A stretch of 64,000 nt of DNA, taken from positions 41,441-105,440 of the IMG/VR virus record IMGVR_UViG_3300037245_003487. One strand, given 5' to 3'. The DNA comes from a virus (taxonomy: Duplodnaviria; Heunggongvirae; Uroviricota; Caudoviricetes). The notes beneath the pieces were generated by a model. The model did no database searches. It saw nothing but the letters and a program-made list of their open reading frames with translations, and was not told the origin of the DNA. Within the stretch, counting starts at the first letter, position 1, and every line of letters begins with the position of its first letter. Shown piece by piece: positions 1 to 25,604 of this stretch. The translations under genes were made by a program, and so were the position numbers.

Positions 1-120
1 ATTTACTCATTATATCAGCTTCATCATATATTTGAAGCCAGTAAGTATTATTCTCTTCTCTTATTTTTCTTATTTTATTTAAGATTATATTTGTTCTATC
101 ATAATCTTTTTCATTATATT

Positions 121-303
121 TTAACATTTATTCTGTAATTCCTTAACTTGTTTTCTAAATTTACAACATTGTTGATATAGATTTTCAGACTTTAAATTCT
201 TAGGCATATCCTTGATAATCATTTCTGTCCAATCTAAAATTTGATCTGTTATGTTGTTTATTTCATTTTTACCTTCACATCTGCATATTGAAAAGTCGCT
301 CAT
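121..303 (-). CDS. hypothetical small protein
   Basis: 60-aa ORF in the minus-strand gene array; no recognisable motif. Confidence 0.3.
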   Translation of the reverse strand: MSDFSICRCEGKNEINNITDQILDWTEMIIKDMPKNLKSENLYQQCCKFRKQVKELQNKC

Positions 304-307
304 TTAT

Positions 308-493
308 TTATCTCCTTATTACATATATTATAAATGTAATTATTATTAATATAATCAATGTTCCCAATTCAATCCATAAAGGAATAAAAACTATCCACCA
401 AAACCAGGCCAAAACACCAGCTAATTTTAATATTATAAATATTATTAATACCACAGTGCCTATTCCAAGTCCACCCTTTTTTGTATCACTCAT
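308..493 (-). CDS. small hydrophobic membrane protein
   Basis: 61 aa, two predicted TM helices (LGIGTVVLIIFIIL... WFWWIVFIPLWIELGTLIIL). Confidence 0.35.
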   Translation of the reverse strand: MSDTKKGGLGIGTVVLIIFIILKLAGVLAWFWWIVFIPLWIELGTLIILIIITFIIYVIRR

Positions 494-1052
494 TTATTTT
501 CTCTATCCATTCACTTTTTAAAATTCCATACCCATGTATATCTATGTATTCGCCATCGAGATAAGTTGCATCTCTAAATTCAGCTTCTTTTTTCATACCA
601 AGCTTTTTAAATACATTGAGCATCCCAATATTTGTTGCCGCTGTGCCGCTCCAAATACGATGTAGGTTCATTTTCCTAAAGGCATGATCATATAAAAACT
701 CAATAGCTTGTGTTGCTATTCCTTTGCCATGATAGCCAGTTTCACCTATCAGTATTGCCATCTCACATGATCTATTTACATAGTTAAATGACTGCAACGA
801 AACATTTCCAATATGCTTATTGTTTGATTTATTTATGATGGCCCACACCAGTGCTTCTCTATTATCAATCGCTTTAAAATAATCCTCAAAGTCTTGATCT
901 GACATTTGCCAAAGACCATGGGAATTGAAGCGTGTAGCTTTTTCGTCCATAAACCATTGGTAGTAGTCGCTATCTACCGACTCAATTAAATCCATAGATA
1001 ATGGACATAACATTATAGTTTTATTTTCATATATTGTTATTGGCATTTTCAT
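486..1052 (-). CDS. GNAT family N-acetyltransferase (RimL/PseH-like)
   Basis: 188 aa; GNAT core and acetyl-CoA binding region (IGNVSL...EMAILIGETGYHGKGIATQA...LHRIW). Confidence 0.65.
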   Translation of the reverse strand: MKMPITIYENKTIMLCPLSMDLIESVDSDYYQWFMDEKATRFNSHGLWQMSDQDFEDYFKAIDNREALVWAIINKSNNKHIGNVSLQSFNYVNRSCEMAILIGETGYHGKGIATQAIEFLYDHAFRKMNLHRIWSGTAATNIGMLNVFKKLGMKKEAEFRDATYLDGEYIDIHGYGILKSEWIEKINE

Positions 1053-1053
1053 T

Positions 1054-1248
1054 TTAACTTTCCTCTGTACAATCAGTAAAAGTACAACCTGTTATATTAG
1101 TATCATGTACTTCGCATATATCTCTAAATACGTTTAAAGCCTTTTGAATTGTTTTATTATCTTTATTGCTATTTAATATTTCTATTATAGCTTCCCTAGC
1201 CTCTATAATCGCTTCCTTTGAAGCTCCTATATTAATCATTTCACTCAT
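1054..1248 (-). CDS. hypothetical protein
   Basis: 64-aa ORF, 4-nt overlap with upstream gene. Confidence 0.3.
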   Translation of the reverse strand: MSEMINIGASKEAIIEAREAIIEILNSNKDNKTIQKALNVFRDICEVHDTNITGCTFTDCTEES

Positions 1249-2054
1249 TTTAACATCTCCTTTAATTCCTTTTTAGTTATTATTTTATGATTGTCTTCTG
1301 TTATGAAGTTGTCTGTATAACAAAATAAATTGTCGTTTTTAATTAAATTATCTTTTTCCCATAAAGGCTGTATATTACTATAATGAAAACAAAGCTTTTG
1401 TTGCTCAGGATCTTTTAAGTCAAACCATATGCAGGGAACCATATGGTCCATATGAATTTCACCATTCATAAATTTATCCCATGTCATTCCAATTATAAAT
1501 TGATTACTAAAATATTTTTTAAATTCTTCTAAAGAGCATCCTAATAATTCCATGGTTGTTTTTGATTTTTCTTTATCTTTAACAAATTTATTAATTCTAT
1601 TTCTTAGATTGACAACTATTTTTCTATTTGGATCGCTGTTGTATTTTTCTCTTTCGTTTCTATTGCGTCTTTCTTTGTTATCTTGCTTATACTGTTTTTG
1701 ATACTCCCTTACTTTTTCTATATTATTATTATGCCATATTTTATTTCTAGTCTGAACCTGATCTTTATTTTCTTGGTAATGCTTTTTATTATCCAATAAT
1801 ATTTTGTCTTTATTTTCTAAATAAAACTCCTTTTGCCGTAAATGTATTTTATCTTTATTATTATCGCCATATATTTTTGATTTTATTTTTAACTTTTCTT
1901 TATTATTTTCTCTGTAAATTTTATCCTGCAATGCTTTACATTTTTTACATTCAGTACTAAACCCATCTTTTTTACTTTTATTACTATGAAAAAATTCATA
2001 ACTTGCAAGAAACTCTATCTTGCATTTGCAGCATTTTTTATATTCTAAATCCAT
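1245..2054 (-). CDS. HNH endonuclease with N-terminal Zn-ribbon and Lys/Asn-rich repeat region (paralog of 47155-47865)
   Basis: C-terminal His-Me finger (GMTW...HMDHMVPC...CFHYSNIQPLWEKDNLIKN); N-terminal CxxC...CKKC; 17-nt overlap with the PseB-like gene. Confidence 0.6.
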   Translation of the reverse strand: MDLEYKKCCKCKIEFLASYEFFHSNKSKKDGFSTECKKCKALQDKIYRENNKEKLKIKSKIYGDNNKDKIHLRQKEFYLENKDKILLDNKKHYQENKDQVQTRNKIWHNNNIEKVREYQKQYKQDNKERRNRNEREKYNSDPNRKIVVNLRNRINKFVKDKEKSKTTMELLGCSLEEFKKYFSNQFIIGMTWDKFMNGEIHMDHMVPCIWFDLKDPEQQKLCFHYSNIQPLWEKDNLIKNDNLFCYTDNFITEDNHKIITKKELKEMLK

Positions 2055-2982
2055 CTATATCCTTTTTAGTCAATCTTCTTACATTATCACTATCCAACAT
2101 AAATCTTGTTTCATTCCAAGTACTTTCATCTATCACATAATAATTATCGTGTTCAACGCAATGATGTGATTCTTCGTAGCCAATTAAACATTCAGCTAAT
2201 TTCTCGCCTCTTCTCAGTCCGATATCCTTAATAATAGCATCTGGATATAAAATATCTATTAAATCTTTTATATTCATACTTTTTACTTTTGGAATCAATA
2301 TAGTTCCAGATTTACCATGAACAGCTTTTGTTAAAATAAAATCACAAATCGTATTGGCATCCACAAAGAACCTGGTCATCTCAGGAGAGGTCAATCCTAT
2401 GGTTTTATTTTTACTATACATCTCTTTAAACATAGGTAAGATACTGCCCGTACTCCCATATATATTGGGATAACGCACGGTGATTAATTTAGTCCTAAAT
2501 CCTGAATAATTGCTAGCATACATCATCATTTTTTCACCAGCAGCTTTCGTAATTCCATAAAAATTTATACCATATACGCTCTTATCTGAATTAGTATAAA
2601 TTACTGTATCTACTTTCTTTTCGATAGCAGCATTAATTACATTTTCAGTCCCATCTATGTTAGTTTTTTTAGCCTCCATAATGTTTGTTTCTGCTATAGG
2701 CAGCTGTTTCATCGCACAAGCATGTATAATGATATCAACGCCTTCACACGCTCTGCATAATCTTTGATAATCCCTGATATCGCCAACACAAAATTCAATA
2801 TTCTTATGCTTTTTAAATTTTAATTTCATCTTCCGATGATTCTCTTCATTTCTTGCATAAATCCTCAAACCTTTCGGATTATAATTTTCAACCAACATCT
2901 CTGTTAATTTATTACCAAGAAACCCTGTTCCGCCTGTAATTAGAATCTCCTTACCTTCATAAAATTCACTACTCATTTCCAT
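2038..2982 (-). CDS. UDP-sugar 4,6-dehydratase/epimerase, PseB/CapD (polysacc_synt_2) family
   Basis: Rossmann ILITGGTGFLGN, GDIRD, HACAMKQLPIAE, YGITKAAGEK (YxxxK). Start moved to MEMSS (RBS GAGGAG) from the longer ORF-track call. Confidence 0.7.
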   Translation of the reverse strand: MEMSSEFYEGKEILITGGTGFLGNKLTEMLVENYNPKGLRIYARNEENHRKMKLKFKKHKNIEFCVGDIRDYQRLCRACEGVDIIIHACAMKQLPIAETNIMEAKKTNIDGTENVINAAIEKKVDTVIYTNSDKSVYGINFYGITKAAGEKMMMYASNYSGFRTKLITVRYPNIYGSTGSILPMFKEMYSKNKTIGLTSPEMTRFFVDANTICDFILTKAVHGKSGTILIPKVKSMNIKDLIDILYPDAIIKDIGLRRGEKLAECLIGYEESHHCVEHDNYYVIDESTWNETRFMLDSDNVRRLTKKDIDGFRI

Positions 2983-3190
2983 CCATCTCCTCGTGATCAA
3001 ACATATCTTCCCCAGGTAAAATTTCACTACCATCTTTCAATACCACTTTGCCAAGTTTGCAATTAATAGAAATTACGTCTCCATTATCTAATTCATCCAT
3101 GTCACTATTTAAGCTACAGCAAAATGCATATTGGGGATCGCGATCCAACATGATGCACCATTTTCCAGTATTATTATCTCTACACTTCAT
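2969..3190 (-). CDS. hypothetical protein
   Basis: 73-aa ORF. Confidence 0.25.
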   Translation of the reverse strand: MKCRDNNTGKWCIMLDRDPQYAFCCSLNSDMDELDNGDVISINCKLGKVVLKDGSEILPGEDMFDHEEMDGNE

Positions 3191-3323
3191 TAATTCCCCT
3201 TATCTATATTACTATTCATCTCTACTTGATTTTTAATAATAGTACCCTGATTTTCTACTGTTCGCTTTATATTTATATTATTTTCTATAAGTATAAATAT
3301 GATAATAATTAATAATACATATA

Positions 3324-3578
3324 TCATTTACTCTCCCAAAATATACACCCATAGTCTTTGTGTAACGCCAACTCACATTTATAACTCTTTAATGTGCCTT
3401 GCGTCTCTAATAAATCATGAGTTACATGAGTATAGGCGTCATGAACTAATATTTTAAACTTTTCTTCATAAGACTCAGCTTCCATTTGAATTTCATTACA
3501 ACAAAATCCATACTTTTCAGAATATTCCAATTCTCTTTGCTTATTACGCCAAAACTTACAGTCTTTACATTTATTCAC
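3324..3578 (-). CDS. hypothetical Cys-rich protein
   Basis: 84 aa with CxxC...CC N-terminus. Confidence 0.3.
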   Translation of the reverse strand: MNKCKDCKFWRNKQRELEYSEKYGFCCNEIQMEAESYEEKFKILVHDAYTHVTHDLLETQGTLKSYKCELALHKDYGCIFWESK

Positions 3579-3856
3579 TCAATCACCTCAAAATCTTCAT
3601 ACGTATATCTTAAACAAAATTCATCTGTATTGCTTTTATTTAATTTATCTAATTCTTGTAAACATTTTTTTTCGCTTTTATACACAGCTATAATTTGTTC
3701 GAAAATTAAATCTGATATTATATACACTTTCATGATTTTTCTTTTCATCATCCCTCTCATATCATCTCTTATTTTAATAAAGTCTTCTGCCTTTACATCA
3801 CATGCATCGCCCATTTTCATCACCATATAAACATACATCCAATTATAGCTATCCAA
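3575..3856 (-). CDS. hypothetical protein
   Basis: 93-aa ORF, 4-nt overlap with downstream gene. Confidence 0.3.
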   Translation of the reverse strand: MDSYNWMYVYMVMKMGDACDVKAEDFIKIRDDMRGMMKRKIMKVYIISDLIFEQIIAVYKSEKKCLQELDKLNKSNTDEFCLRYTYEDFEVIE

Positions 3857-3952
3857 ATTCCAACCATCACACTACTTAAAAGCATTGCAGTTATACTTAA
3901 TCCAAACACGCCTAAAGTAAGAATCGCTTTTACCATATTATCACAATCCATA

Positions 3953-4837
3953 TCAATCCCTCATTCCAGTCACTGGATCAGCTCTTAAAACCAAATCATC
4001 TTTTGTTAATTCAAATTCACCATCATTAATCATCTCTAATTGATCTAGATAACAAAACAGGTTTATACAATCACTTTCAGTCCACACGTGATTATACTGT
4101 GTTTCAGCGCCTTTACGATCGTCTAAATCAAAATGTAGTTCTATTATTTCAGCACCGTTATTAATTGCTTGTCCTACTACTTCAGGAGAAACTGAATGAT
4201 CACTGTATCCAACATTCATAAATACTGAACTAAAATTCTTATCATCTGAGAATTTAACCTCACTTCCTATCATTTTCATTCCACTAAATAAATCTTTTGA
4301 TATTAAATCATCAATTTCAAATATTCTACTAACACAGGAATCTTTAATTTTAGTTGGATACTTAGAAACGCAATGCTGAAAACAAACTTCTTCCTCAATC
4401 CTTAATTCATTACATATTTTTATTATATCACTTATATTTTGATCTTCAGCTAAACCACATGATATATAAACAGGCTTTTTCTTACTTAAGCAAGCCATTA
4501 TTAAATCTTTTCGTAAAATATCAAAACTTGAAATTTTATAGAAATCTATATAAGGCTCTACTTGATCTACGCCTTCTAAATAGAATGGAGTTATACCTAT
4601 TTTCAACCCAATCCTTTTACAATAAGATGAAATTAAAGGCAGTAATGTTAAATCAAACTCTCTATCTTTTAAAATTTCTTTATTTTTACCATCTTTATAT
4701 AAAGTATCAGCCTTAAATGCCTGGAATTTTATTCCATAAAAACCTAACTCATAAGCGCTATCTATTAGTTTTTTAATACGCTCTATATCAGAATTTCCAT
4801 TTGAACCTATTTCGGCTATAAACTTTGTATTAGTCAT
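3953..4837 (-). CDS. nonulosonic acid synthase (NeuB/PseI/LegI family)
   Basis: N-terminus FIAEIGSNGNSD...ELGFYGIKFQAF matches the NeuB TIM-barrel signature (AEIG.NHNG...KFQ). Confidence 0.7.
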   Translation of the reverse strand: MTNTKFIAEIGSNGNSDIERIKKLIDSAYELGFYGIKFQAFKADTLYKDGKNKEILKDREFDLTLLPLISSYCKRIGLKIGITPFYLEGVDQVEPYIDFYKISSFDILRKDLIMACLSKKKPVYISCGLAEDQNISDIIKICNELRIEEEVCFQHCVSKYPTKIKDSCVSRIFEIDDLISKDLFSGMKMIGSEVKFSDDKNFSSVFMNVGYSDHSVSPEVVGQAINNGAEIIELHFDLDDRKGAETQYNHVWTESDCINLFCYLDQLEMINDGEFELTKDDLVLRADPVTGMRD

Positions 4838-6095
4838 TCAATGTAAACCTCCCATTATAAACTTTTAAAAACGCTAAATATATATCTTCTATATCGCTAT
4901 CTTCAAGAGGCAAACTATGAAGCAGTGTGATAAATAACTCTTTCTCTTGCATTCTTTTTAAAACAGGAAAATCATCAATGCTATGCTTACCTTTAAAAAT
5001 TGGAAAGGATCCTAAAAAACTTATATACCCATTATTAATCTGTACACCCTTATCAAGTCTACCTTCTTCTTCAGTTAACTCAGCTCTAACAGCTTCCAAA
5101 AACACGTCTCTTTCTATACCAATTGAATCTTCATCATAAATAAATGGAAGTACATAATAAGAGTTGACATCACAATTATTTTTTGCTAAACTTATTCCAG
5201 GAACAGAGCATAATTTATCTGATAATTTTTTAACATTATTTTTTCTTAATAATACAATATCATCAAGTTTCTTTAATTGCTCCCTTAAAATAACAGCCTG
5301 AATCTCTGACATCCTTAAATTCATCCCAGGATAATTGAAGTCTTTAAATTTATTTTGACCTTCTACTGGCATGTCATTAATAACAGCATCTAAATGATTT
5401 CTTCCTAATGCACACTTTATAAATAACTCATCACTATCAGTTACTATCATTCCGCCTTCACCACAAGTTAAGGTTTTGCCTTGTGTAAAACTGAAACATC
5501 CTATATGACCAGCAAATCCAGCATAAACACCATCTCTTTTACTATTTATAGCTTGAGCTGCATCCTCTATCACATATAAGTGATTATCCAATGCTATTTT
5601 ATTTATAGCTTTATAATCATATATATTACCAAATAGATCTACAACTATAATAGCTTTGGTATTTTTAGTTATTTTTCTTTTAACATCTTCAGGATCTAAA
5701 CAAAAGCTATCATCTATATCTGCAAATACAGGTATAGCACCATAATGCATACAAATAGTAGCACTGCATGACATTGAATATCCGGTAACTATAACCTCAT
5801 CACCAGGCTTTAATCCTATAGCTCCACATGCCACATATAATGCCGATGTACAGCTATTAACTGCTAATGCATTATAATTAGGATTGAATTTACGTGAAAA
5901 CTCTCTTTCGAGTTCCTTTACCTCATGGCCTCCCATAAAGTTCGATCCAAAGTTGCCACGAAAAGCTGATAGAACCTTGCTTTCCATAACCCTTTGCACT
6001 GCTTTTGCTTCCTCAGTACCTATTGTTTTTTGACTTGGAAACAGTGTTGTACGAACCTTATTTCCACCTTTTATTGCAAGTTTATCCATTAACAC
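4830..6095 (-). CDS. DegT/DnrJ/EryC1/StrS-type PLP aminotransferase (PseC-like)
   Basis: 421 aa; GDEVIVTGYSM, FSFTQGKTLTCGEGGMIVTD (PLP-lysine region); 8-nt overlap with NeuB-like gene. Confidence 0.7.
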   Translation of the reverse strand: MLMDKLAIKGGNKVRTTLFPSQKTIGTEEAKAVQRVMESKVLSAFRGNFGSNFMGGHEVKELEREFSRKFNPNYNALAVNSCTSALYVACGAIGLKPGDEVIVTGYSMSCSATICMHYGAIPVFADIDDSFCLDPEDVKRKITKNTKAIIVVDLFGNIYDYKAINKIALDNHLYVIEDAAQAINSKRDGVYAGFAGHIGCFSFTQGKTLTCGEGGMIVTDSDELFIKCALGRNHLDAVINDMPVEGQNKFKDFNYPGMNLRMSEIQAVILREQLKKLDDIVLLRKNNVKKLSDKLCSVPGISLAKNNCDVNSYYVLPFIYDEDSIGIERDVFLEAVRAELTEEEGRLDKGVQINNGYISFLGSFPIFKGKHSIDDFPVLKRMQEKELFITLLHSLPLEDSDIEDIYLAFLKVYNGRFTLND

Positions 6096-6345
6096 CTACT
6101 TTTAATAATTCTAAATCAGATTCAAAACATCTAATCTCTTCAATTTTACCATTATTATTTATGTATTCAACATCATAAACATAACATTCTTTTTCTTTAC
6201 ATAATCTCATAATTACTCCATTTAAATCATGAGTAATCAATTTAACTTTATCATCGATACCAAATTTAAAATTCATGGTATTCGGAGGATAACATCCTAT
6301 TTTACCACAATTAGGCGTTCTTATATTCGGGGTACACCAACACAT
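6082..6345 (-). CDS. hypothetical protein
   Basis: 87-aa ORF. Confidence 0.3.
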   Translation of the reverse strand: MCWCTPNIRTPNCGKIGCYPPNTMNFKFGIDDKVKLITHDLNGVIMRLCKEKECYVYDVEYINNNGKIEEIRCFESDLELLKVGVNG

Positions 6346-6357
6346 ATTTTTTCTCCT

Positions 6358-6978
6358 TTATTTTGTAAAATCTCTATATTTTAATTTAGTAATAATCCGC
6401 TCTCCATTTCTGCATTTTAATTCAATTTCTGGTCTAGCAACAATGCCTTCAGCAATAAAGTCACCCCATTGAGAATTAAAACCTTTTTTGGTAATTATTA
6501 TCATATCACGCAATGTTCCGCTCCCTATAATTGGAGTAACTTCAATTTCCAGTTCTAATGCTATTTTTTCTATATCAACTCTATTTAACCACCAGTCACC
6601 TATACTAATGTCAAATAATACAAAATCATTTACATCCTTATATTTTCCGCCTTTTTGTATTTTAGGTCCATAACCCTCTCCATACAAACAAACATCGCAA
6701 TTAAATAATTCTTTAAATTTCTCATGTTTAGATAAAAATTTACTATTCAATTCATTTAGTAATCCGATTGGTATTTGAGCATTATCAGTTTTTCCATTAA
6801 ATAATATTTTGCTATCTTTAAATTGAATTCTTATATTTGTACCATCAATTTTCTCAGTAAAAATCCATTTATTATCCTGTAAATACTCAAATTCTGGTAA
6901 TGAATATTCACTTGTTAATATTTTCATATCATCAGGATCTCTTTTAAAAACTGTTTGTATTTTATGATATTTTTTCAT
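6358..6978 (-). CDS. minimal ATP-dependent polynucleotide ligase (Rnl-like nucleotidyltransferase)
   Basis: Nucleotidyltransferase motifs I KIDGTN, III VLFDISIG, IV IAEGIVARP, V ITKLKYRDF in a 206-aa protein. Confidence 0.55.
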   Translation of the reverse strand: MKKYHKIQTVFKRDPDDMKILTSEYSLPEFEYLQDNKWIFTEKIDGTNIRIQFKDSKILFNGKTDNAQIPIGLLNELNSKFLSKHEKFKELFNCDVCLYGEGYGPKIQKGGKYKDVNDFVLFDISIGDWWLNRVDIEKIALELEIEVTPIIGSGTLRDMIIITKKGFNSQWGDFIAEGIVARPEIELKCRNGERIITKLKYRDFTK

Positions 6979-7156
6979 TTTCTCTCCTTAATTTTTTATT
7001 ATTTATAACAAGACTTTAATTTACCATTTGATTGATATATACCAGAATTAATTAATTCCTGTCTTGCTTGTTCAGGTGTATAATTTTTTATTTCCTCATG
7101 ATGTCTTCTTAATATTTCTAATTCTTTTTTTGTTTCGTTAGATATATATTCTTTTA

Positions 7157-8149
7157 TCACCTTTTATTCCTTAAATATTCTATTACTTTATGAACCTGAA
7201 CCGCATCTTCTGCAGTACATTTAAGTTCTTCATTATTATCTAAATGACTTACAACATTATCATACATATTAGGTAGGCAATTAGTTAATTCTATACTTCC
7301 ATCAATATCTGCAGTTCCAGATAAACTAGCATAATTACCATATGTATCTTCTTGTGTTACTGGGTAGAACTTAAATCCCTGAAACCAATCATCTAGAACT
7401 ATTTTACCTTGTTCTGTAATTATTTCCATTTCAAAACAAGCAGCTTTCCTGCCATCAACTGGAACCATAAATATATTAGGACATTTTTCATAAGACATCC
7501 AGATTGGAACTGTTGGGTCCTCACTTGATAAATCATTAATCCATACAGAGTCGTTCCCTAAAATTCTTCCGTCTCTAAATTCTCCAAAAAACCAATTGCA
7601 AATATCTATAGCGTGTGGTGCGTCCCTTAATAAACCTCTGTTATAATTAAATACAGCACTATAAATATTTCCAAACTTACCTTCCTTTAGATCATTTCTA
7701 AAGGCTTGAATTTCATTAGAATATCTTCTTGTGTAATTTATAGAAATCGGTATTAAATTAGAATAAAATTGATTATAAATATCTCTAGCATTTCTTAAAT
7801 TATCACAAAACGGTTTTTCACAAACAATAATCAGTGGCTCTAATATCTTTATAATTTCACTTAATAATAAATAATGAGAAGTAGTTGCTGATGAAATAAC
7901 TATTATATCTACGCTTTCCTTAATATCTGTAAAGTATAAATAGGGCTTAGTATCCCATTTTTTTGCAGCTTCAATGGCTTTTTCAAAATCCATATCTATA
8001 ACTCCAACTAAATTTATATTTTCATTTTTACAAATTGCATTTGCATGTGTTTTTGGAACAGTGTCTTTACTGTCAAATACAACGTCTTTAGATGTGCCTA
8101 TAGAGCCACATCCTATTATTATTGCATTATATTTCATAAATGACTCCAT
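7157..8149 (-). CDS. Gfo/Idh/MocA family NAD(P)-dependent sugar oxidoreductase
   Basis: N-terminal Rossmann AIIIGCGSIGTSK plus family-typical C-terminal alpha/beta domain. Confidence 0.65.
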   Translation of the reverse strand: MESFMKYNAIIIGCGSIGTSKDVVFDSKDTVPKTHANAICKNENINLVGVIDMDFEKAIEAAKKWDTKPYLYFTDIKESVDIIVISSATTSHYLLLSEIIKILEPLIIVCEKPFCDNLRNARDIYNQFYSNLIPISINYTRRYSNEIQAFRNDLKEGKFGNIYSAVFNYNRGLLRDAPHAIDICNWFFGEFRDGRILGNDSVWINDLSSEDPTVPIWMSYEKCPNIFMVPVDGRKAACFEMEIITEQGKIVLDDWFQGFKFYPVTQEDTYGNYASLSGTADIDGSIELTNCLPNMYDNVVSHLDNNEELKCTAEDAVQVHKVIEYLRNKR

Positions 8150-8652
8150 GTTCTTCTACTAACTATACCATTTATTCCACCTACGGAATAACCAAACTTT
8201 TTCCCTATTTCTTTCTTGGAGCATTTTCCAGAATCATGCATTTTCCTGATCTCTAAAACTTGCTCATTAGATAATCTTGATTGTGAAGATTTCTCTCCTC
8301 TATTTGAACTTAATCCATTTTTAAATGCGTGTATCATATTTTCATGACAGTCACACCATTCTAAATTATCTACATGATTATTATCTTTATTACCATCCTT
8401 ATGATTAACTTGTGGTTTATTACCTATATTAGTTATAAAATGTATTGCAACTAATCTATGGGCCTTACAAGACTTGTTTTTTGAATTACCCCATAAATTA
8501 ACTATACAATATCCATTTTTATCCTTTCTGTGTTTTTTCACAACACCTTTATATAATCTATTCCTTATAGTCCTATCTAAAGATCTGGTTCTGCCATAAC
8601 TTGATACTTGATAATAGCCTTCATAACCATCGATATCTTTCCAAATTTCCAT
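8134..8652 (-). CDS. HNH homing endonuclease with NUMOD4 motif
   Basis: WKDIDGYEGYYQVSSYGR (NUMOD4) then NHKDGNKDNNHVDNLEWC (HNH_3); 16-nt overlap with the oxidoreductase gene; RBS AAGGAG. Confidence 0.75.
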   Translation of the reverse strand: MEIWKDIDGYEGYYQVSSYGRTRSLDRTIRNRLYKGVVKKHRKDKNGYCIVNLWGNSKNKSCKAHRLVAIHFITNIGNKPQVNHKDGNKDNNHVDNLEWCDCHENMIHAFKNGLSSNRGEKSSQSRLSNEQVLEIRKMHDSGKCSKKEIGKKFGYSVGGINGIVSRRTWSHL

Positions 8653-8690
8653 ATTGCTCCTTAATTTAAAACTTTATTTACAAATTTACT

Positions 8691-8718
8691 GGGGACCCTC
8701 TACCACTGAGGTAATAGC
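8691..8718 (-). ncRNA. tRNA 5'-half-like fragment (acceptor + D-arm)
   Basis: Minus-strand GCTATTA-CCTCAGTGGTAGAGG. No matching anticodon or T-arm downstream; abuts the RBS of the HNH gene. Confidence 0.3.
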
Positions 8719-8769
8719 TTATTAGGCTTCTAAATAACTTATCATGAGTATTATTTAAAAGTTTTCCAT

Positions 8770-8805
8770 TACGCTATGCAGGATTCGAACCTACGACAGA
8801 ACCCC
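8770..8805 (-). ncRNA. tRNA 3'-half-like fragment (T-arm + acceptor 3' strand)
   Basis: Minus-strand GTAGG-TTCGAAT-CCTGC-ATAGCGT; no 5' partner found. Confidence 0.3.
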
Positions 8806-8830
8806 TAGTAAATCGATAATTAAATAAAAC

Positions 8831-8948
8831 GGATAGAGAGAAAGGATTTGAACCTTTCATGCCTCTAAGTGTATATATGCGCACAAGTAAATCAACTCGA
8901 AACACTTATTTTTCCATGAGAGCTTAGCCATTCAGCTTATCTCTATCC
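8831..8948 (-). tRNA. tRNA-like gene with an insertion of about 45 nt (118 nt overall)
   Basis: Acceptor GGATAGAG/CTCTATCC, D-arm AGCT-GAATGGCTA-AGCT, perfect T-arm AAAGG-TTCAAAT-CCTTT. No canonical anticodon arm; about 45 extra nt before the T-arm. Confidence 0.35.
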
Positions 8949-9067
8949 TAATTTAACTGAATGTACTACTAGATTTACACTCAGGTAATTTCAATCTTAA
9001 TTAAGAATAACACAATATGTAAATTATGTCAAGTCTATTTATATGTCATTTACATTTAATTTACAAC

Positions 9068-9829
9068 CTAATCTACTCCTGGAATTTTACTTATCTTAGA
9101 GCTATTAGCATCAAGGATATGCGGACATCTCTTGATTAGATCTATAATATCATTATATGTAAAATCAATTCTATTAAAGTAATTAATTATTTTTTTAATA
9201 ACAATTAAATCTTCTGGATGATCTAAGACTAATCTAACTTCTGGCATAAAATCATCTGCAGATTTATTTCCAACCATTATTCCGAGATTGAATAAATTCT
9301 GCAATTCACCTAAGTTATTAATAATATTCCAACCGATATGCGTTCTGTGCTGTTCATTTTCAACAATTTTATTAACTGATAATAAAATATCAGCATCAAA
9401 TATTTGTATATCAGCACCATCAAAAAAGCTTCTTGTTAGAGTATTTGAATAAAAATTATATCCGTAACTATGAAATTCATCTAACATACTATCAATCATT
9501 TCTGGGCAAATTAACTGGCAATCGCTCGTCAAATCAATAATAGTATCATTATAAAAATTAAAATCATCAATCAATCCACATACCCTTTGCATTACATCAT
9601 TCTCGCTACCAATATAATAATGCCATCCATTTTGAATACAAAGCTCAACAAGCTCCTTGTCAGCTGGATTATCAGTTGTTGCAATAAAAATTTTATCAAT
9701 TTTCTTAGATAATCTCAATCGCTCTACCATAAATTCCAATGCTGTCATGTGGCCGAAAACTGTTTGCATGATCTTGCCAGGAAATCTCGTACTACCTAGT
9801 CTACATTGTATAATTGCTATATTACTCAT
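9068..9829 (-). CDS. acylneuraminate/pseudaminate cytidylyltransferase (NeuA/PseF/SpsF family)
   Basis: N-terminus IAIIQCRLGSTRFPGKI matches the CMP-sugar synthetase P-loop-like motif. Confidence 0.65.
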   Translation of the reverse strand: MSNIAIIQCRLGSTRFPGKIMQTVFGHMTALEFMVERLRLSKKIDKIFIATTDNPADKELVELCIQNGWHYYIGSENDVMQRVCGLIDDFNFYNDTIIDLTSDCQLICPEMIDSMLDEFHSYGYNFYSNTLTRSFFDGADIQIFDADILLSVNKIVENEQHRTHIGWNIINNLGELQNLFNLGIMVGNKSADDFMPEVRLVLDHPEDLIVIKKIINYFNRIDFTYNDIIDLIKRCPHILDANSSKISKIPGVD

Positions 9830-9879
9830 ATAATCCTCCTATTAATAAAATAAAAAGCCCAAATTAATGGGCTAATAAA

Positions 9880-10261: not shown

Positions 10262-12319
10262 TTATATTTTTATTTTTATTATTCTTTTAAAACTACCTTC
10301 AACTTTAACAATAACATTGTTTCTTTGAGTTGAAGAAAAACCTAATCCAGATAATTGATTATTAGATGGCTCTACTCTCATTTTACCACCTAGAGCCTCA
10401 AAAACTCTTTTATGAGGTATTAATTCATCCTTAAGGAACTCATTATAAAATCCCCTTGGCTGTCCATCGTTTTTACAGTCGTCTAAAAAGAAAAAGTAAT
10501 GCTTGTTACCAATTCCTTTTTGACCATCCCAGAAATTAGGACTAAACATCAAAGATGATACCTTAGTAAATTGATTAGTATTTACACCCCAAACCTCTCT
10601 TGATGAGGATGTTGAATCTAATTCATGCTCAATAGTGAATTCACCATTTTTTAAAGTAACCTCTGCTATTGTAATCCATTCATGATGATTGGTTTTAGGG
10701 TATTCATATTGAAAAAGATTGCCATTAAATTCTATCTCAGCCTTACCTCTGCCTCCGCTTACTCTATAATTCCAATTATGAATTTTACAAATATATTTAC
10801 CTTCTGGCATCTTAGCTAGCGATGGAAAGGTTATGTTTTCTACAGGAATGTAGCCTTTAGGTGCTTGGTTAACATAATCAACATCTTGAACTCCGCCAGA
10901 TTCATAATCTTTTCTATTATTCCACCCAACTCTTCTTCCGTCGCCATAAGTATTGTGTGTTTTACGGTTACTATGAGAGTTGCCAGGCATAAACACATGT
11001 AAATCCATCAAAGACTGATTGGGTTCTATTTCATTCCATGAATGAGTAAACCTAAACACGCCATCCACTCTTCCTCCAGCCGCCTTTACTTTTTCTCTTA
11101 AAGAATCAGTAACATTACCAACATATGAATGAGTAAAATTATTACTCCACTTCATCATACTCGGAGCATTATTATCTTTAGGAGCTATTAAACTCATTAA
11201 ATTAGACTGATGTCTTGACTCAACCATCAACTCAATATTACTTGCGCCTGGAGCTATCTTCTCTACGAAATCTTTAATACTAACCTCTTCAACTTTATCA
11301 AGTTTTCTAGGATTAATAACTACTTCATCTTTTAAATCATCAAATACCGATGAGTTGGTCTTTTTAGCAACACCGTTTTTCCATATAACATTATTTATAG
11401 TAATATCTTCTAATGTAGCATGTTTTCTACTTAAAGAATTTTCATAACCAAGATCTTTAATTGTTTTTTCAGCTTCTTCAACCATTTTTTTAGTAAAAAT
11501 AGCTTTAGGTCTTTTATAGTTAGTCGGAGCAACAACTGCCTCAAACTTTTTAACAGCTGTATTTAAATCCATATCTTCTGATAAATTTATTAATAACGTC
11601 CCAATAGCTGAATTTCTTATTCTAGAAACAGGACCTGTTGAATTTAGCCAACACCAATTATCTCTGTTTTTAACAGGTACTTTATCATATTTATTTTTTA
11701 ATTTAACAAATTCTTGGATAACATACATAAATTCATCGCCTTTATAAAGCGATCCTTGACTTATAAGATCAAGTATTGTTTCTGCAGCATCTAAAGTCAA
11801 CTCCTTCATCGCTCTTTCAAATACGTTCTTAGCATCCCTGTGCTTACCCTGAACACTACCTATGGAATCACTTATCACAAACTTATTTGGAAGTTTATAA
11901 TAAAAGTGTGACCAAGTTTTTACAGTACCATCTTCTAGTAATTGCTTATTATCATCTATTCCTTGATGATATTCATTAGATACAAATACATCTCTAATAG
12001 CTGCTGATTTAACAAGCTCTGACATTTTAGCAGCCACAATATTAAATGGAAACTCTAAATCTTCTGCGTCCCAAATAGAAACAAGCTTATTTCTTTTAAT
12101 AGATACTACATTTCCACATCTTCTAATAAATTGCTTACAAGCCACACAATCATATTCCCTTCGTTCTTTATGAACTTCATTTGTTCCTTCAGGAAAACTA
12201 TCTAAATAAGTATTCCAAAGATCTTCTTTTGTCACATCAGTTTTAAATAACCTATCTTCTTTTACCATGACAGTAAACTGATCACTCACTGGTTGTTTAA
12301 AACTTTTAAAATTACTCAT
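10262..12319 (-). CDS. large conserved protein of unknown function
   Basis: 685-aa uninterrupted ORF with own sigma70-like promoter and RBS; no motif recognised by eye. Confidence 0.5.
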   Translation of the reverse strand: MSNFKSFKQPVSDQFTVMVKEDRLFKTDVTKEDLWNTYLDSFPEGTNEVHKERREYDCVACKQFIRRCGNVVSIKRNKLVSIWDAEDLEFPFNIVAAKMSELVKSAAIRDVFVSNEYHQGIDDNKQLLEDGTVKTWSHFYYKLPNKFVISDSIGSVQGKHRDAKNVFERAMKELTLDAAETILDLISQGSLYKGDEFMYVIQEFVKLKNKYDKVPVKNRDNWCWLNSTGPVSRIRNSAIGTLLINLSEDMDLNTAVKKFEAVVAPTNYKRPKAIFTKKMVEEAEKTIKDLGYENSLSRKHATLEDITINNVIWKNGVAKKTNSSVFDDLKDEVVINPRKLDKVEEVSIKDFVEKIAPGASNIELMVESRHQSNLMSLIAPKDNNAPSMMKWSNNFTHSYVGNVTDSLREKVKAAGGRVDGVFRFTHSWNEIEPNQSLMDLHVFMPGNSHSNRKTHNTYGDGRRVGWNNRKDYESGGVQDVDYVNQAPKGYIPVENITFPSLAKMPEGKYICKIHNWNYRVSGGRGKAEIEFNGNLFQYEYPKTNHHEWITIAEVTLKNGEFTIEHELDSTSSSREVWGVNTNQFTKVSSLMFSPNFWDGQKGIGNKHYFFFLDDCKNDGQPRGFYNEFLKDELIPHKRVFEALGGKMRVEPSNNQLSGLGFSSTQRNNVIVKVEGSFKRIIKIKI

Positions 12320-14938: not shown

Positions 14939-15306
14939 TACATCCCCCTAAAAATATTACTCATTATTTTGCCAAGCTTCTCAGCTCTTTCTTTTTGAAA
15001 TACAATACTTTCTAAACGCAACTCTTCTTTTTTGATTCTTCTTTTTTCTTGTTGTTCAGAGGAGTGATATCTTATTCGAGCTTTTTTATTTCTAAGCAAT
15101 CTGCCTTTCTCTATTTTTTCATTCTCTTCATCAATTAAGGCTTGATTACTAGCACGAATTTCATTATTAGTATCGCCACAACATTCACATATAGCATTAG
15201 TACATTGATTGAATTGTGTAAATGGAACACAGCAATCTTCGCACACTGGCTCTTCACAAGATTCGCATTTCCAATCAGTTTTCTTTCCACAAACATGACA
15301 TTTCAT
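14938..15306 (-). CDS. Cys-rich zinc-finger protein with basic C-terminus
   Basis: CHVCGKKTDWKCESCEEPVCEDCC... then Lys/Arg-rich tail. Confidence 0.35.
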   Translation of the reverse strand: MKCHVCGKKTDWKCESCEEPVCEDCCVPFTQFNQCTNAICECCGDTNNEIRASNQALIDEENEKIEKGRLLRNKKARIRYHSSEQQEKRRIKKEELRLESIVFQKERAEKLGKIMSNIFRGM

Positions 15307-15324
15307 AATTATCTCCTAAAAATA

Positions 15325-15543
15325 TTATAAGTTATTTTGCTTAATGACTATTTTAGTATTTTCAATAAAATAAGAATATTCATGGCTATAATCATTAAAT
15401 TGTTGAGTTAAATACTCTAACTCACTTATTTTAGATAATGCTTTTTTTAAAAGTATTAGCAATTGTTTGTTTTTACCCTCAAGACATTCTATTATGTTTT
15501 CTCCAAACTGAGAGCATTTATTCTTACAAATATAACATTCCAT
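15325..15543 (-). CDS. hypothetical small Cys-containing protein
   Basis: 72-aa ORF, RBS AAAGGAAA upstream. Confidence 0.3.
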   Translation of the reverse strand: MECYICKNKCSQFGENIIECLEGKNKQLLILLKKALSKISELEYLTQQFNDYSHEYSYFIENTKIVIKQNNL

Positions 15544-15636
15544 AATTATTTCCTTTAAGTTGTATTTTTTAACTATTCTTAACAGAGGATAACATAATTT
15601 TTTTATAAGTAAAGTTTATTTACAATTAAATTACCA

Positions 15637-15673
15637 GTTCCAATACAAGAATTCTTTTAAGTTATATTATAAC
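15637..15673. repeat. 37-bp direct repeat copy 1 (GTTCCAATACAAGAATTCTTTTAAGTTATATTATAAC)
   Basis: Perfect 37/37 identity with copy at 15713-15749, separated by 39 bp. Confidence 0.8.
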
Positions 15674-15712
15674 AGTTTTTTATTAATAAAATGATTTTGT
15701 TCTCCAGTGCTG

Positions 15713-15749
15713 TTCCAATACAAGAATTCTTTTAAGTTATATTATAACT
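15713..15749. repeat. 37-bp direct repeat copy 2
   Basis: Identical to 15637-15673; has a terminal 13-nt palindrome GTTATA-T-TATAAC. Confidence 0.8.
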
Positions 15750-15891
15750 TTTAGCTTTAAATTGATCCATAGCATAGTCATTAATTCATTTGCCAATTTA
15801 TAAGAAAAATAACTAAAATCCCGTATTCGCTTATACTTTTCATTTTTAATATCTTTATCTTTATCATTAATATATAATTGTATTTTTCTTG

Positions 15892-16287
15892 TTACCATAA
15901 ATTCTTTTCCTTTAATTCTTTAAGTAGTTGCTTAAAAGTTTTCTCAAGTGCTAAAAACTCATCAATATCACGTTTAACCAATACATTCTTAAGTGCATCG
16001 AGCTTTTCATATTCATCCTCACCATGCTTTTCCTTAAATGCTTTTATGTATTCATGCACGTTACCACTCAAATAACGATTGCAATAAATACATTGTGCGC
16101 TGACATTGAGTAAGTTGAACTTAATTGACTTAAACCTTCTGCTAAATAAATGACCACAATCCATTTTCCTTGGATCTCGTTCTACCTTATTGCAAGATAT
16201 ACATTGCCAGCGATCACGTTCACGAACATAATCACTCATCGCTTTAAGTGCCTTTTTCTCAGCACCTTTCTTTGTTAATTTACCCAT
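15892..16287 (-). CDS. NinG/Rap-like recombination endonuclease (tentative)
   Basis: CISCNKVERDPRKMDCGHLFSRR...CIYCN pattern resembles lambda NinG family. Confidence 0.35.
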   Translation of the reverse strand: MGKLTKKGAEKKALKAMSDYVRERDRWQCISCNKVERDPRKMDCGHLFSRRFKSIKFNLLNVSAQCIYCNRYLSGNVHEYIKAFKEKHGEDEYEKLDALKNVLVKRDIDEFLALEKTFKQLLKELKEKNLW

Positions 16288-16502
16288 TACTCATCCTTAA
16301 TTACTCTTTCAAATTTTCTATAAATTTTATAGTTCTTAATTATTTTCTCTAAATAATAAACATGATCTATATTATCAATATCTATTAATATAGAACTGAG
16401 TAATTCCTTTAGCTTACTCTTACTATCCTCTAACTCTTTTTCTTCATCAAATTCATATAAATAGCTATAATGTCCCATTATATCCTCAACTCCATAAACC
16501 AT
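16287..16502 (-). CDS. hypothetical protein
   Basis: 71-aa ORF. Confidence 0.3.
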   Translation of the reverse strand: MVYGVEDIMGHYSYLYEFDEEKELEDSKSKLKELLSSILIDIDNIDHVYYLEKIIKNYKIYRKFERVIKDE

Positions 16503-16786
16503 ACTTTAATATCATAGATTATTTGCAATAAAAATCTCATAACATCAAAATTCTTTTTTAATAATCTTCTTGCTAATTTTAATAATGATTTCCTGTATTT
16601 GTTTTTAAAATTTTCTATATAATCATTACAATTCTTTCCATACTTATAAGAGCTGCAAAAATTCCACCTCCTTTTAAAATTGCATTCCCAATAACTACTA
16701 ATCATTTGTTTATCTCTAACAAATAAGCAATTATAGCACTTATAGCACTTATAGCACTTTAATTCATTTTTCATTTCTCCTCCCAT
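16478..16786 (-). CDS. hypothetical Cys/Tyr/Lys-rich protein
   Basis: Contains 3x tandem 9-bp DNA repeat tatagcact (16731-16760) encoding CYKCYKCY. Confidence 0.3.
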   Translation of the reverse strand: MGGEMKNELKCYKCYKCYNCLFVRDKQMISSYWECNFKRRWNFCSSYKYGKNCNDYIENFKNKYRKSLLKLARRLLKKNFDVMRFLLQIIYDIKVWFMELRI

Positions 16787-16928
16787 AATAAATCATATAA
16801 ATAAAACAACACTAAATTACTACAATTAAATATCACTGTGAACCAAATAGGCTGTTTCACAAATACACATAAGGTAAATGTGAAGCCTATCATTATTACA
16901 CGCCATATAATACTTTTCCAAATTCTTC

Positions 16929-18257
16929 TCAAACTCTTAATATATCCTTTATTTCATTTTCATAATCAATACCTTGATATATTTTATCGCCATAAATACA
17001 TTTACCATCAATAACTACGACATGATTTATATTAAATCTATTATCTGTAGACTTAACTACTGCGAAGCCTTCTTGCCAGTCAGGGTTAGAAACCTTACCA
17101 GGGACTCTGTCATCAGTATGACATGTACACCCTATCTGAGTAACAGTTATTTGCTCATTAGTTCCCGTGAACGTCTTGGATAACCTTTCTATACTATGTC
17201 CATGAGCTTGAATCACAGATACATTAGTCCTTTCAAGTTCCTTCTTGATATTTACATATTCGCCATGAATGACTTTAAGTTTATTATTAATATAATATTC
17301 ACCACTTGGATAATCTTCAATAAAAGTAATTCCTAGATCATCCATTCCCAATAAATGATTCAATGAATAAGGAATATGATTAGTTCCATAAGGCTTAACT
17401 TGATACGCATAAAGCATATGCTCTTGAACAGCTTTATTTAGTCTTATCTCGTGGTTGCCATTTAAAAATATTATATCACCATCAAATATATTTCTTATTT
17501 TACTTAACAAATATCCTAATTCATTTATCGCTGGCTGCAAAGTGAAATAAAATTCCTTCTTTTTTTCATACTTACTAGCCTCTGTCATATCAAGCATATC
17601 GCCAAGTAAAATAACTTCATCAGGGTTAATATCCTCGATAATCTGTAGAATAACATCAATGCATTTCCTATCATGGAAAGGTATTAATTCTCCAGTCTGT
17701 TGGTTCTTTAAAAAACCTATTTGAGAATCAGCAAATATTAATGATGTTTTAATATTGCCTTTAAGTCTTAAACTATTCATCTTATTAAATGAATCAGCTC
17801 TTTTTTTAGGTAAGTTAAATCTAATTGGTTTAATTACTGGCAAGATCTGTTTGTCTGGATTACGCTTCACCATTTCAGCTTTAACTGACCAATTGCCAAG
17901 CCAACTTGATATCTTATGTTCTTTTATGATCCATTCTTTTTCGTTGATGCCAGCTCGTTTTTTAAGCTCCTCAAGCGATGTTATTTTAGTATCTGTAACA
18001 GTTACTTCTTTTTCATTATGCCTTTGTTCTGATTCTAACTTTGGTATTTCAATTTTTGGCATTTCTACATAAACGTCATTTTTTGGAAAAATATTCTCTC
18101 TATTATTCCAAATAGAATCAGTTTTCTGATCATGATAAAACCTTCTGCCGCAATCTTTACATTTTCTATCTAAAACCATATATCCTAATTTCTTGATAAA
18201 AACTTTACCTTTTGAATTACTACTATTACTTTCACATCTTGGACATTTTATACCCAT
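16929..18257 (-). CDS. calcineurin-like metallophosphoesterase with N-terminal zinc ribbon
   Basis: CPRCES...CKDCGRRF then MPP motifs ILLGDMLD, FLNGNHE, HGHSIE. Confidence 0.6.
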   Translation of the reverse strand: MGIKCPRCESNSSNSKGKVFIKKLGYMVLDRKCKDCGRRFYHDQKTDSIWNNRENIFPKNDVYVEMPKIEIPKLESEQRHNEKEVTVTDTKITSLEELKKRAGINEKEWIIKEHKISSWLGNWSVKAEMVKRNPDKQILPVIKPIRFNLPKKRADSFNKMNSLRLKGNIKTSLIFADSQIGFLKNQQTGELIPFHDRKCIDVILQIIEDINPDEVILLGDMLDMTEASKYEKKKEFYFTLQPAINELGYLLSKIRNIFDGDIIFLNGNHEIRLNKAVQEHMLYAYQVKPYGTNHIPYSLNHLLGMDDLGITFIEDYPSGEYYINNKLKVIHGEYVNIKKELERTNVSVIQAHGHSIERLSKTFTGTNEQITVTQIGCTCHTDDRVPGKVSNPDWQEGFAVVKSTDNRFNINHVVVIDGKCIYGDKIYQGIDYENEIKDILRV

Positions 18258-25559: not shown

Positions 25560-25604
25560 TTATACTCCTTTCCTATCACTAATATCTGTTCTAATATAAT
25601 ATCC

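Follow-up and report, generated by a model that had tools for sequence, protein, structure and literature searches.

A probable nonulosonic-acid protein-glycosylation module in a widespread clade of uncultivated myoviruses

Nonulosonic acids decorate the surfaces of bacteria and archaea, where they control motility, immune recognition, and phage adsorption, and Maf enzymes transfer CMP-activated nonulosonates to Ser and Thr residues of flagellin. Bacterial Maf flagellin-glycosylation islands (Campylobacter, Helicobacter, Aeromonas, Magnetospirillum) combine PseB, PseC, PseH, PseG, PseI, and PseF with Maf. In phages, nonulosonates have so far been known only through tailoring or passive carriage: prophage EpaA/EpaB, the closest published phage case, only epimerizes host-made pseudaminic acid (Pse; PMC12053666), and the VP4 spike of HRPV-1 carries 5-N-formyl-legionaminic acid, which affects adsorption (PMC6137143). 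Mycobacteriophage virions are glycosylated on capsid and tail, according to the passage of PMC13477221 that cites Freeman et al. (2023). Here we analyze a 64,000-nucleotide stretch of tailed-phage DNA (positions 41,441–105,440 of IMG/VR record IMGVR_UViG_3300037245_003487; hereafter the window), one end of which carries a cassette of sugar-biosynthesis genes. We consider it probable that window positions 1–9873, together with a gene for a Maf-type glycosyltransferase just beyond the window, constitute a nonulosonic-acid protein-glycosylation module that belongs to a widespread clade of uncultivated myoviruses with Mu-like tails.

The transferase gene lies 420 bp beyond window position 1, the left edge, and occupies positions 15,258–17,966 of locus L002. 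Its 902-residue product contains an MptE-like domain (PF01973, 3.7e-43, 147.7 bits against a cutoff of 34.6), a Maf_flag10_N domain (PF20157, 6.7e-11, 42.5 bits against a cutoff of 23.5), and C-terminal tetratricopeptide repeats (TPRs, about residues 690–900). The clear top Foldseek match of its AlphaFold2 (AF2) model (pLDDT 91.5) was Magnetospirillum Maf (5MU5, E = 7e-16, 761 columns); TPR superhelices came next, among them the ones found in OGT and SPY, which are themselves protein glycosyltransferases. By domain content and modeled fold, the protein is thus predicted to be a Maf-type enzyme with a TPR fusion (Maf-TPR). A TPR domain also binds the acceptor in the pseudaminyl-transferase FlmG, which is unrelated to Maf (PMC7591256). 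We found more than 200 full-length relatives of Maf-TPR (35–51% identity), all of them metagenomic, and 628 representatives (50%-identity clusters) at E ≤ 1e-30 in a library of 1.84 billion proteins. The gene is present on 48 IMG/VR contigs. Its genomic linkage is to phage tail-fiber and baseplate genes and not to flagellar genes. A tblastn search of 50,697 deposited phage genomes returned no match; distant MptE-like proteins occur in uncultured Caudovirales and in one member of the Mimiviridae.

When the open reading frames (ORFs) of 66 loci were clustered, the seven most widely shared clusters were exactly Maf and the six enzymes of the cassette: a GNAT acetyltransferase, a short-chain dehydrogenase/reductase (SDR), a DegT aminotransferase, a cytidylyltransferase (CTP), a Gfo/Idh/MocA oxidoreductase (GFO), and a NeuB-like synthase. 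The genes mostly run in the order CTP-GFO-DegT-NeuB-SDR-GNAT-(small ORF)-Maf. Our informative set comprised 41 non-redundant loci, each of which has 9 kb or more of sequence upstream of Maf; the full set of six partners lies upstream of Maf in 26 of these, and each partner is present in 33–38 (DegT in 38, SDR in 37, GNAT in 37 and usually just before Maf, GFO in 35, and the cytidylyltransferase in 33). DegT and GFO genes are adjacent in almost every locus, CTP and GFO genes are adjacent in most, and tail-fiber and baseplate genes follow the cassette convergently in most relatives. The loci span 23–67% GC, the pairwise divergence of the cassette genes correlates with that of Maf (Spearman rho 0.26–0.60), and the nearest homologs of the cassette are on other viral contigs. 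Because the same set recurs in a conserved order on dozens of independent viral contigs, the association is far beyond chance.

A first-pass annotation, made from the sequence alone, had read the six enzyme families on one strand of the window, and Pfam confirmed all six on the minus strand, at coordinates that agree exactly or to within a few codons. The SDR (2038–3033; Polysacc_synt_2, PF02719, 1.1e-72) is of the PseB/FlaA1 type of UDP-GlcNAc 4,6-dehydratases. Its longest ORF encodes 331 residues, and the gene caller used on the source contig places the start at 2976, which is probably the true start. Among NCBIfam models the best match was PseB (TIGR03589, 279 bits, cutoff 408), followed by FnlA (194 bits) and LegB (TIGR04180, 76 bits, cutoff 475). 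In a search of the PDB, H. pylori FlaA1/PseB (2GN4) matched over the full length at 1.8e-61, ahead of FnlA and CapE, and the retaining dehydratases PglF and WlaL matched only at about 1e-26. The S-x9-Y-x3-K catalytic triad is aligned and is of the Y type. Judged by these alignments, the SDR appears closest to inverting UDP-GlcNAc 4,6-dehydratases such as PseB.

The NeuB-family nonulosonate synthase (294 residues, 3953–4837; PF03102, 8.5e-34) belongs to a subfamily of 270- to 300-residue proteins without an SAF domain. Alignment with canonical NeuB, PseI, and LegI showed that the invariant residues E9, N13, K37-x-Q39, K101-x-x-S104, S126-x-G128, C156-x-S-x-Y-P, S212-D-H214, and E233-x-H235 are all kept; the phosphoenolpyruvate (PEP)- and metal-binding motifs KFQ, KIxS, SDH, and ExH are thus retained in the TIM barrel. 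The first-pass annotation had named loss of the catalytic residues of this protein as a finding that would count against a nonulosonate pathway, and every catalytic and metal-binding residue proved to be conserved. The AF2 model (pLDDT 91.9) had as its top folds the SAF-less Leptospira NeuB 6NCS (the bacterial precedent for such an enzyme), C. jejuni PseI (8H2C), and N. meningitidis NeuB (1XUU). The SAF (antifreeze-like) domain PF08666 was not found in the protein and is replaced by a short clade-specific tail, R-A-x-x-D-P-x-D-G-L-R-P. Canonical NeuB, PseI, and LegI proteins that bear PF08666 match the phage protein only at E ~1e-13 or weaker, and its score against the PseI model TIGR03586 (105 bits, cutoff 340) does not reach the PseI equivalog.

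The DegT/DnrJ/EryC1 protein (421 residues, 4830–6095; PF01041, 2.2e-71) is a member of its family with an aligned pyridoxal phosphate (PLP) lysine, and its best-ranked NCBIfam model is PseC (TIGR03588, 167 bits, cutoff 423), followed by LegC (144 bits, cutoff 420). It is a genuine PLP-dependent sugar aminotransferase but not a PseC equivalog. The GNAT N-acetyltransferase (188 residues, 486–1052; Acetyltransf_3, 3.4e-22) presumably N-acetylates the amino sugar. The cytidylyltransferase (253 residues, 9068–9829; PF02348, 4.5e-20) had been labeled NeuA/PseF-type; its place in the CTP_transf_3 family holds, but no PseF model is among its NCBIfam matches, the best of which are KdsB-type subfamily models below cutoff, and it is better described as SpsF-like. 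The JGI names are likewise SpsF for this protein and SpsE for the NeuB-like protein. Its best PDB match was 6OEW (250 residues), aligned over the full length at 2.1e-32 and including the R-x-G-S-x-R-x-P-G-K motif. The NAD(P)-dependent GFO (330 residues, 7157–8149; PF01408, 2.3e-09) has G-x-G-x-x-G, E-K-P, and His residues that are invariant across 37 homologs, and its profile matched DgpA (4e-17) and inositol 2-dehydrogenase (8e-16) in the PDB, which are generic sugar/cyclitol C3-type dehydrogenases. We considered GFO as a relative of ElaA, WbpB, or GH109, and single-sequence and profile searches gave generic matches only. Upstream of the cytidylyltransferase gene, an intrinsic-terminator-like hairpin on the minus strand (9856–9873; AGCCCA...TGGGCT then TTTTATTTT) would end the preceding unit and mark the 5′ boundary of the cassette. 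A promoter scan gave no enrichment over shuffled sequences.

The intact residues and fold of the NeuB-like protein, the PseB-like SDR, and the conserved Maf together support the earlier proposal of a phage-borne CMP-nonulosonate pathway. The analysis itself establishes the enzyme families, their intact catalytic residues, the NeuB and Maf folds, a synteny common to the clade, and the lack of a PseG/NeuC-type enzyme; the order of steps, the sugar, and the acceptor are inferred. The PseB-type SDR would convert UDP-GlcNAc into UDP-4-keto-6-deoxy-HexNAc, on which the DegT aminotransferase and GNAT would install an acetamido group. After removal of the nucleotide by an enzyme that is not recognizable in the phage, the SAF-less synthase would join the free sugar to PEP and yield a nine-carbon 2-keto-3-deoxy acid, from which the SpsF-like cytidylyltransferase would make the CMP-sugar. 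GFO may tailor the CMP-sugar, or it may supply a keto group for DegT. Maf would then move the sugar onto Ser or Thr residues of a protein selected by the C-terminal TPR domain.

For GFO, analogy offers three candidate roles. It could oxidize a substrate that the adjacent DegT then transaminates, as the enzyme pairs WbpB/WbpE, NtdC/NtdA, and KdnB/KdnA do. More speculatively, it could replace PseG by NAD-dependent elimination of the nucleotide, a mechanism known from GH4 and GH109 enzymes. It could also oxidize the CMP-sugar in the manner of ElaA; in the ElaABC system a Gfo/Idh/MocA enzyme works jointly with a cytidylyltransferase on a CMP-nonulosonate (PMC13656337).

Concerning the sugar, we favor a Pse-like compound of the L-series because the SDR is more similar to inverting dehydratases. 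For the legionaminic (Leg) pathway, the LegB and LegC models are matched only below cutoff, and neither an LbH acetyltransferase of the LegH type nor an Epimerase_2 protein was found in the window or in relatives. Family content cannot separate Pse from Leg, because B. subtilis makes Leg with a nearly identical set (PMC7439481). Given the lack of PseG and of PseC and PseH equivalogs, and the several roles open to GFO, the sugar is probably Pse-like and could be new.

Several observations weigh against this reading. No PseG/NeuC/LegG-type enzyme was found in the cassette or in the rest of the window, about 40 kb of the 122-kb genome being outside the sequence analyzed, and no PseG/NeuC-type hydrolase was found among the recurrent accessory genes of relatives or, by a pooled Pfam search, among 40 further intra-cassette ORFs. 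The gap noted in the first pass therefore extends to the related cassettes, and one obligatory step has no assigned enzyme. The two ORFs in which a PseG-like hydrolase had been sought (3324–3856 and 6082–6345) encode 84–93 residues, match no family, and are unconserved in relatives, and for these reasons they cannot be PseG; release of the nucleotide would therefore be host-supplied or non-canonical. All NCBIfam equivalog scores are below cutoff. The profile of the DegT clade scores 251 bits against BtrR and 224 against the ulosonate transaminase KdnA in the PDB and only 147 against PseC. GNAT scores 35 bits against the PseH model TIGR03585 (cutoff 93), its best profile matches in the PDB are YdaF, AAC(6′), and SpeG, and PseH structures are absent from both its single-sequence and its profile lists, which places it nearer to RimL-like, AAC(6′), and SpeG enzymes than to PseH. 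The labels PseC and PseH thus stand as statements about the DegT and GNAT families and fail as equivalog assignments. We assign no step to GFO. On the side of the acceptor, we know of no Maf substrates established by experiment other than flagellins, and the Maf gene of this phage is not beside its tail genes (the tail module lies at 48–64 kb). Nor did GTDB identify a host: it contained the Maf-TPR family only on contigs of metagenome-assembled genomes (MAGs), with incoherent taxonomy (Melioribacteraceae, WWE3, Woesearchaeota, Desulforudis, Thermodesulfobacteriota, and others). Because these labels are mutually inconsistent, we treat the MAG contigs as mis-binned phage contigs.

The rankings of DegT and GNAT have led us to weigh a product that is not a sugar of the Pse/Leg type. 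It would be another ulosonic acid derived from PEP, or else one that bears an additional amino group. An inositol-dehydrogenase-like GFO and a BtrR/KdnA-like DegT would oxidize and then transaminate the free sugar or the ulosonate, as KdnB and KdnA do for Kdo8N, and an AAC(6′)/SpeG-like GNAT would acetylate the resulting amine. Such a pair is consistent with the closeness of the GFO profile to DgpA and inositol dehydrogenase and with the adjacency of GFO and DegT in nearly all loci, and loss of the SAF domain takes away the arginine (R314 of N. meningitidis NeuB, mutant structures of which are among the structural matches) that binds the N-acetyl group in the canonical enzyme. ElaA and ElaB show, moreover, that a Gfo/Idh/MocA enzyme can oxidize a CMP-nonulosonate (PMC13656337). 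We nevertheless regard this product as quite unlikely: a PseB-type 4-keto intermediate needs an aminotransferase or a reductase, and DegT, for which PseC is the top NCBIfam model, is the only transaminase present, and both the Maf-type transferase and the CTP_transf_3 enzyme are of kinds that typically go with nonulosonates. Within the nonulosonate pathway that we prefer, it is conceivable, if on the doubtful side, that a possibly new nonulosonic acid is made by a PseG-independent route and that Maf-TPR O-glycosylates the tail fibers or capsid of the phage itself. GFO might then free the nucleotide by NAD-dependent oxidation-elimination, or GFO and the BtrR/KdnA-like DegT might add an extra amino group. 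On that reading, no virus before this one would have been known to encode both donor synthesis and transferase for a sialic-acid-like decoration of its virions.

As the acceptor we tentatively choose, at chances somewhat short of even, a virion protein such as a tail fiber, because the cassette is a clade-wide core across very different GC contents, its closest homologs are in phages and not in cells, it usually adjoins tail-fiber and baseplate genes, and virions assemble in the cytoplasm, the compartment in which Maf-type enzymes work. The glycosylated virions of mycobacteriophages and the HRPV-1 spike serve as precedents. Host flagellin is our second choice, well below even chances, yet it has to be taken seriously, since no other substrate has been proven for Maf. 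The same CMP-nonulosonate pathway would then serve to glycosylate flagellin or another host surface protein during infection, which could benefit the phage by blocking flagellotropic competitors, altering motility, or masking receptors. The fold match of Maf-TPR is to a flagellar Maf, and a phage without PseG may need a host that runs a Pse/Leg pathway, as is typical of flagella-glycosylating bacteria. But a syntenic core kept at 23–67% GC, beside tail-fiber and baseplate genes in most relatives, does not resemble a sporadic host-specific moron; no gene for a flagellin-like protein or a flagellar chaperone is nearby; and a lytic phage would presumably gain little, since the filament still has to be exported and assembled. 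We therefore rate modification of a host protein as unlikely. The first-pass annotation had also allowed for remodeling of the host capsule or lipopolysaccharide (LPS), here as a means of superinfection exclusion, and there are phage precedents in the tailoring of A. baumannii capsular nonulosonates by prophage EpaA/EpaB (PMC12053666) and in a lineage (L068) that couples CTP-SDR-NeuB with a GT2 glycosyltransferase. Of the purposes then proposed, protein glycosylation is borne out by the conserved Maf that adjoins the window, and capsule or LPS remodeling is very improbable because the sole transferase is a soluble, cytoplasmic, Maf-type protein glycosyltransferase; no membrane glycosyltransferase, flippase, polymerase, or lipid-carrier enzyme is present in the window or in the conserved cassette. 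Least credible of all is a cassette that homing endonucleases have overrun and that is now decaying and without function. One step is indeed missing, and the cassette is interrupted by two HNH genes, the RNA ligase gene, small orphan ORFs, and a non-coding RNA, but the seven ORFs are intact, with conserved catalytic motifs and confident models, the set is kept across dozens of divergent phages, and the insertions lie between genes.

These insertions, two HNH endonucleases and an Rnl-like ligase among them, are as the first pass had described them, and all are on the minus strand. A 269-residue His-Me/HNH-type homing endonuclease (1245–2054; PHROG endonuclease VII, 2.9e-13) has a Zn-finger and an H-x-D-H...N motif and a paralog at 47,155–47,865 (minus strand); its gene is missing from most relatives and is a mobile insertion outside the sugar pathway. 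The second endonuclease (172 residues, 8134–8652) combines NUMOD4 (PF07463, 4.6e-16) with HNH_3 (PF13392, 3.8e-06) and sits between the GFO and cytidylyltransferase genes, and its homologs (cluster c23) occur at other positions and in six loci only. A further HNH endonuclease, of 430 residues, is encoded at 43,590–44,882 (minus strand). The RNA ligase (206 residues, 6358–6978; PF09414 RNA_ligase, 8e-17) has no homolog in related cassettes and is an insertion unrelated to the sugar pathway. The small ORFs at 3034–3952 (43–93 residues) match no Pfam, NCBIfam, or PHROG family and have no homologs in related loci. None of these unconserved elements disrupts a gene, each being inserted between genes, and the view that selfish elements have colonized the cassette holds.

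A structured non-coding RNA region (8670–8960, minus strand; fold z = −3.45) lies in the gap at 8653–9067, where T-arm motifs (GGTTCGAATCC and GGTTCAAATCC) are found. It contains a YrlA-like (Y RNA-like) element at about 8681–8813, in which the T-arm precedes the D-arm, and a tRNA-like element at about 8830–8950. The Rfam YrlA match (24 bits, E = 0.19) is below threshold and ARAGORN called no tRNA in the gap. The tRNA-like fragments read in the first pass are real and correspond to two structured, T-arm-containing elements, one of them weakly YrlA-like. In the relative L004, a YrlA RNA (E = 2e-5, 1982–2121) at the same position lies directly upstream of a TROVE/Ro60 gene (2144–3565); no Ro60 gene is present in the 64-kb window. 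L004 also has, at 4907–5016, a tRNA-like element with a 56-nucleotide insertion in the anticodon region (Rfam tRNA, 33 bits; no ARAGORN call). Elsewhere in the window, a 154-residue ORF (25,178–25,642, minus strand) matches only the C-terminal 80 residues of RtcB and may be a fragment or a split gene. The RNA ligase, the RtcB ORF, and the Y RNA-like element suggest a phage RNA-repair theme.

At the left edge, a 97-residue ORF of cluster c10 (L002 14,711–15,004, equivalent to window −166 to 127) has about 42 codons of its 5′ part in the window (1–127, minus strand); its homologs lie directly upstream of Maf in 26 loci and match no family. The relatives carry further accessory genes, including SbcCD-like proteins. 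A BNR_2 sialidase-like gene (c21, 350–375 residues) lies between NeuB and SDR in seven relatives (L015, L019, L023 at 6244–7344, L049, L051, and L052 among them); its place inside the cassette speaks for a sialic-acid-like sugar. The gene is absent from this window. Some relatives have a second CTP_transf_3 gene followed by a 220- to 235-residue, weakly xylose-isomerase-like TIM-barrel protein (c18), and others have a divergent 222-residue NeuB (c20) in place of the 280-residue NeuB; one or other variant is found in L005–L008, L013, L017, L030, L037, and L042. A search for a cellular counterpart of the cluster by way of the cytidylyltransferase gave only 12 matches; the ones that we inspected came from other phages or from marine contigs in which the genes are arranged differently.

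The source is a tailed phage whose contractile tail has a Mu-like baseplate: PHROG and Pfam identified sheath, tube, tape measure, baseplate J/gp46/gp48, and head-completion genes, and the window also encodes a baseplate hub, a tail terminator, a ribonucleotide reductase (RNR), a nicotinamide phosphoribosyltransferase (NAMPT), a DnaB-like helicase, and seven tRNAs. Sheath identity to Mu-like sheaths is only about 37%. At about 30% GC the window is AT-rich, and the minus strand carries all of the genes that are convincing. We found the exact NeuB-like protein on a 122.4-kb contig (SRR11832402_6319), the source myovirus contig; beyond the right edge of the window we recovered only a 6.6-kb contig, which bears head-completion genes. 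No similar DNA, and none near-identical, was found among deposited phages. A 725-residue protein without a Pfam or PHROG match, encoded upstream of the baseplate genes (48,110–50,287, minus strand), is probably the tail fiber; its Ser + Thr content (21%, against a window median of 11%) is too weak a signal for use as evidence. Other genes, all on the minus strand, include those for NAMPT (563 residues) and a directly adjoining PRPP-synthetase-like protein (271 residues; 38,067–40,570), which look like an NAD+ salvage module. The RNR large subunit (1088 residues, 19,489–22,755) may contain an intein or a large insertion, because the PHROG match is split between residues 26–163 and residues 532–1087. 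A 685-residue DUF8224/phrog_1735 protein (10,262–12,319) has matches in 543 records and is 45–47% identical to proteins of Bacillus, Pseudomonas, Salmonella, Klebsiella, and Caulobacter phages.

A literature survey and searches of deposited phage genomes gave no report of a phage-encoded nonulosonate donor pathway coupled to Maf; one review lists "pseI" among phage auxiliary genes, as a table abbreviation from which the phage is not identifiable. Nonulosonate genes are not unique to this clade among phages, because two other clusters are known to us. In LR756508.1 (L071), an unannotated 484-kb genome of an uncultured phage, a SAF-less NeuB (cluster at 310,781–335,449) is accompanied by four GT29 sialyltransferase-like genes, a GDP-mannose 4,6-dehydratase, an epimerase, and a GIY-YIG endonuclease, without Maf, DegT, or GNAT. 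The L068 cluster (189–3798 of a Mu-portal phage contig), which also has a SAF-less NeuB, consists of CTP-SDR-NeuB-GT2 only and lies beside packaging genes. The NeuB-like protein of the window had one weak tblastn match in the 50,697 phage records. On a TARA ocean contig (L069, 1292–5235), a NeuB domain and an amine-oxidase/GLF-like protein form a single fusion, which has a CTP_transf_3 gene and an SDR as neighbors.

If our reading is true, these virions would be coated with a bacterial-type sialic acid, which bears on host recognition, particle stability, and the immune recognition of therapeutic phages. A compact enzyme set without PseG and SAF could reveal a new route of sugar release or a new nonulosonate, and a Maf with a separable, acceptor-binding TPR domain could become a glyco-engineering tool.

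Known systems resemble parts of this module. Like the bacterial Maf islands, the cassette has a PseB-type dehydratase, DegT, GNAT, a NeuB-type synthase, a CMP-transferase, and a Maf of the 5MU5 fold, and a CMP-nonulosonate would likewise be passed in the cytoplasm to Ser or Thr residues of a protein. Unlike those islands, it resides in a lytic-type myovirus, is linked to tail genes instead of flagellar genes, lacks PseG, has a SAF-less NeuB, an extra Gfo/Idh/MocA enzyme, and a C-terminal TPR superhelix on Maf, and its DegT and GNAT are not PseC and PseH equivalogs. The Sps system of B. subtilis (SpsM, C, D, G, E, and F) shares with it a UDP-GlcNAc dehydratase of the CapD/PseB family, a DegT enzyme, an acetyltransferase, a NeuB-family synthase, and an SpsF-type CTP_transf_3 enzyme (PMC7439481). 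Bacillus, however, has the SpsG hydrolase that is absent from the phage cassette, SpsE has an SAF domain, and Sps has no Maf; SpsM, with an M-type triad, retains the C5 configuration, whereas the phage SDR has a Y-type triad and is nearest to the inverting PseB. The pairing of a cytidylyltransferase with an oxidoreductase recalls ElaABC of A. baumannii KL49, in which such an oxidoreductase acts on the CMP-nonulosonate and ElaA is a Gfo/Idh/MocA enzyme, and prophage EpaA/EpaB, which shows that phages carry nonulosonate-tailoring genes (PMC13656337, PMC12053666). Ela and Epa only epimerize a host-made sugar and need a second reductase (the SDR ElaC/EpaB), whereas the phage cassette has no ElaC-like SDR, shows no detectable specific sequence similarity to ElaA, and has genes for the synthase and the transferase in addition. 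Mycobacteriophages supply just the glycosyltransferases and draw on sugars of the host, and HRPV-1 encodes none of the pathway, whereas this clade encodes donor synthesis and transferase together. The type of pathway and the family of transferases are thus both known and only their biological setting is new, and the module is set apart by the lack of PseG, the SAF-less NeuB, the added GFO, the fusion of Maf to TPRs, and the linkage to tail genes.

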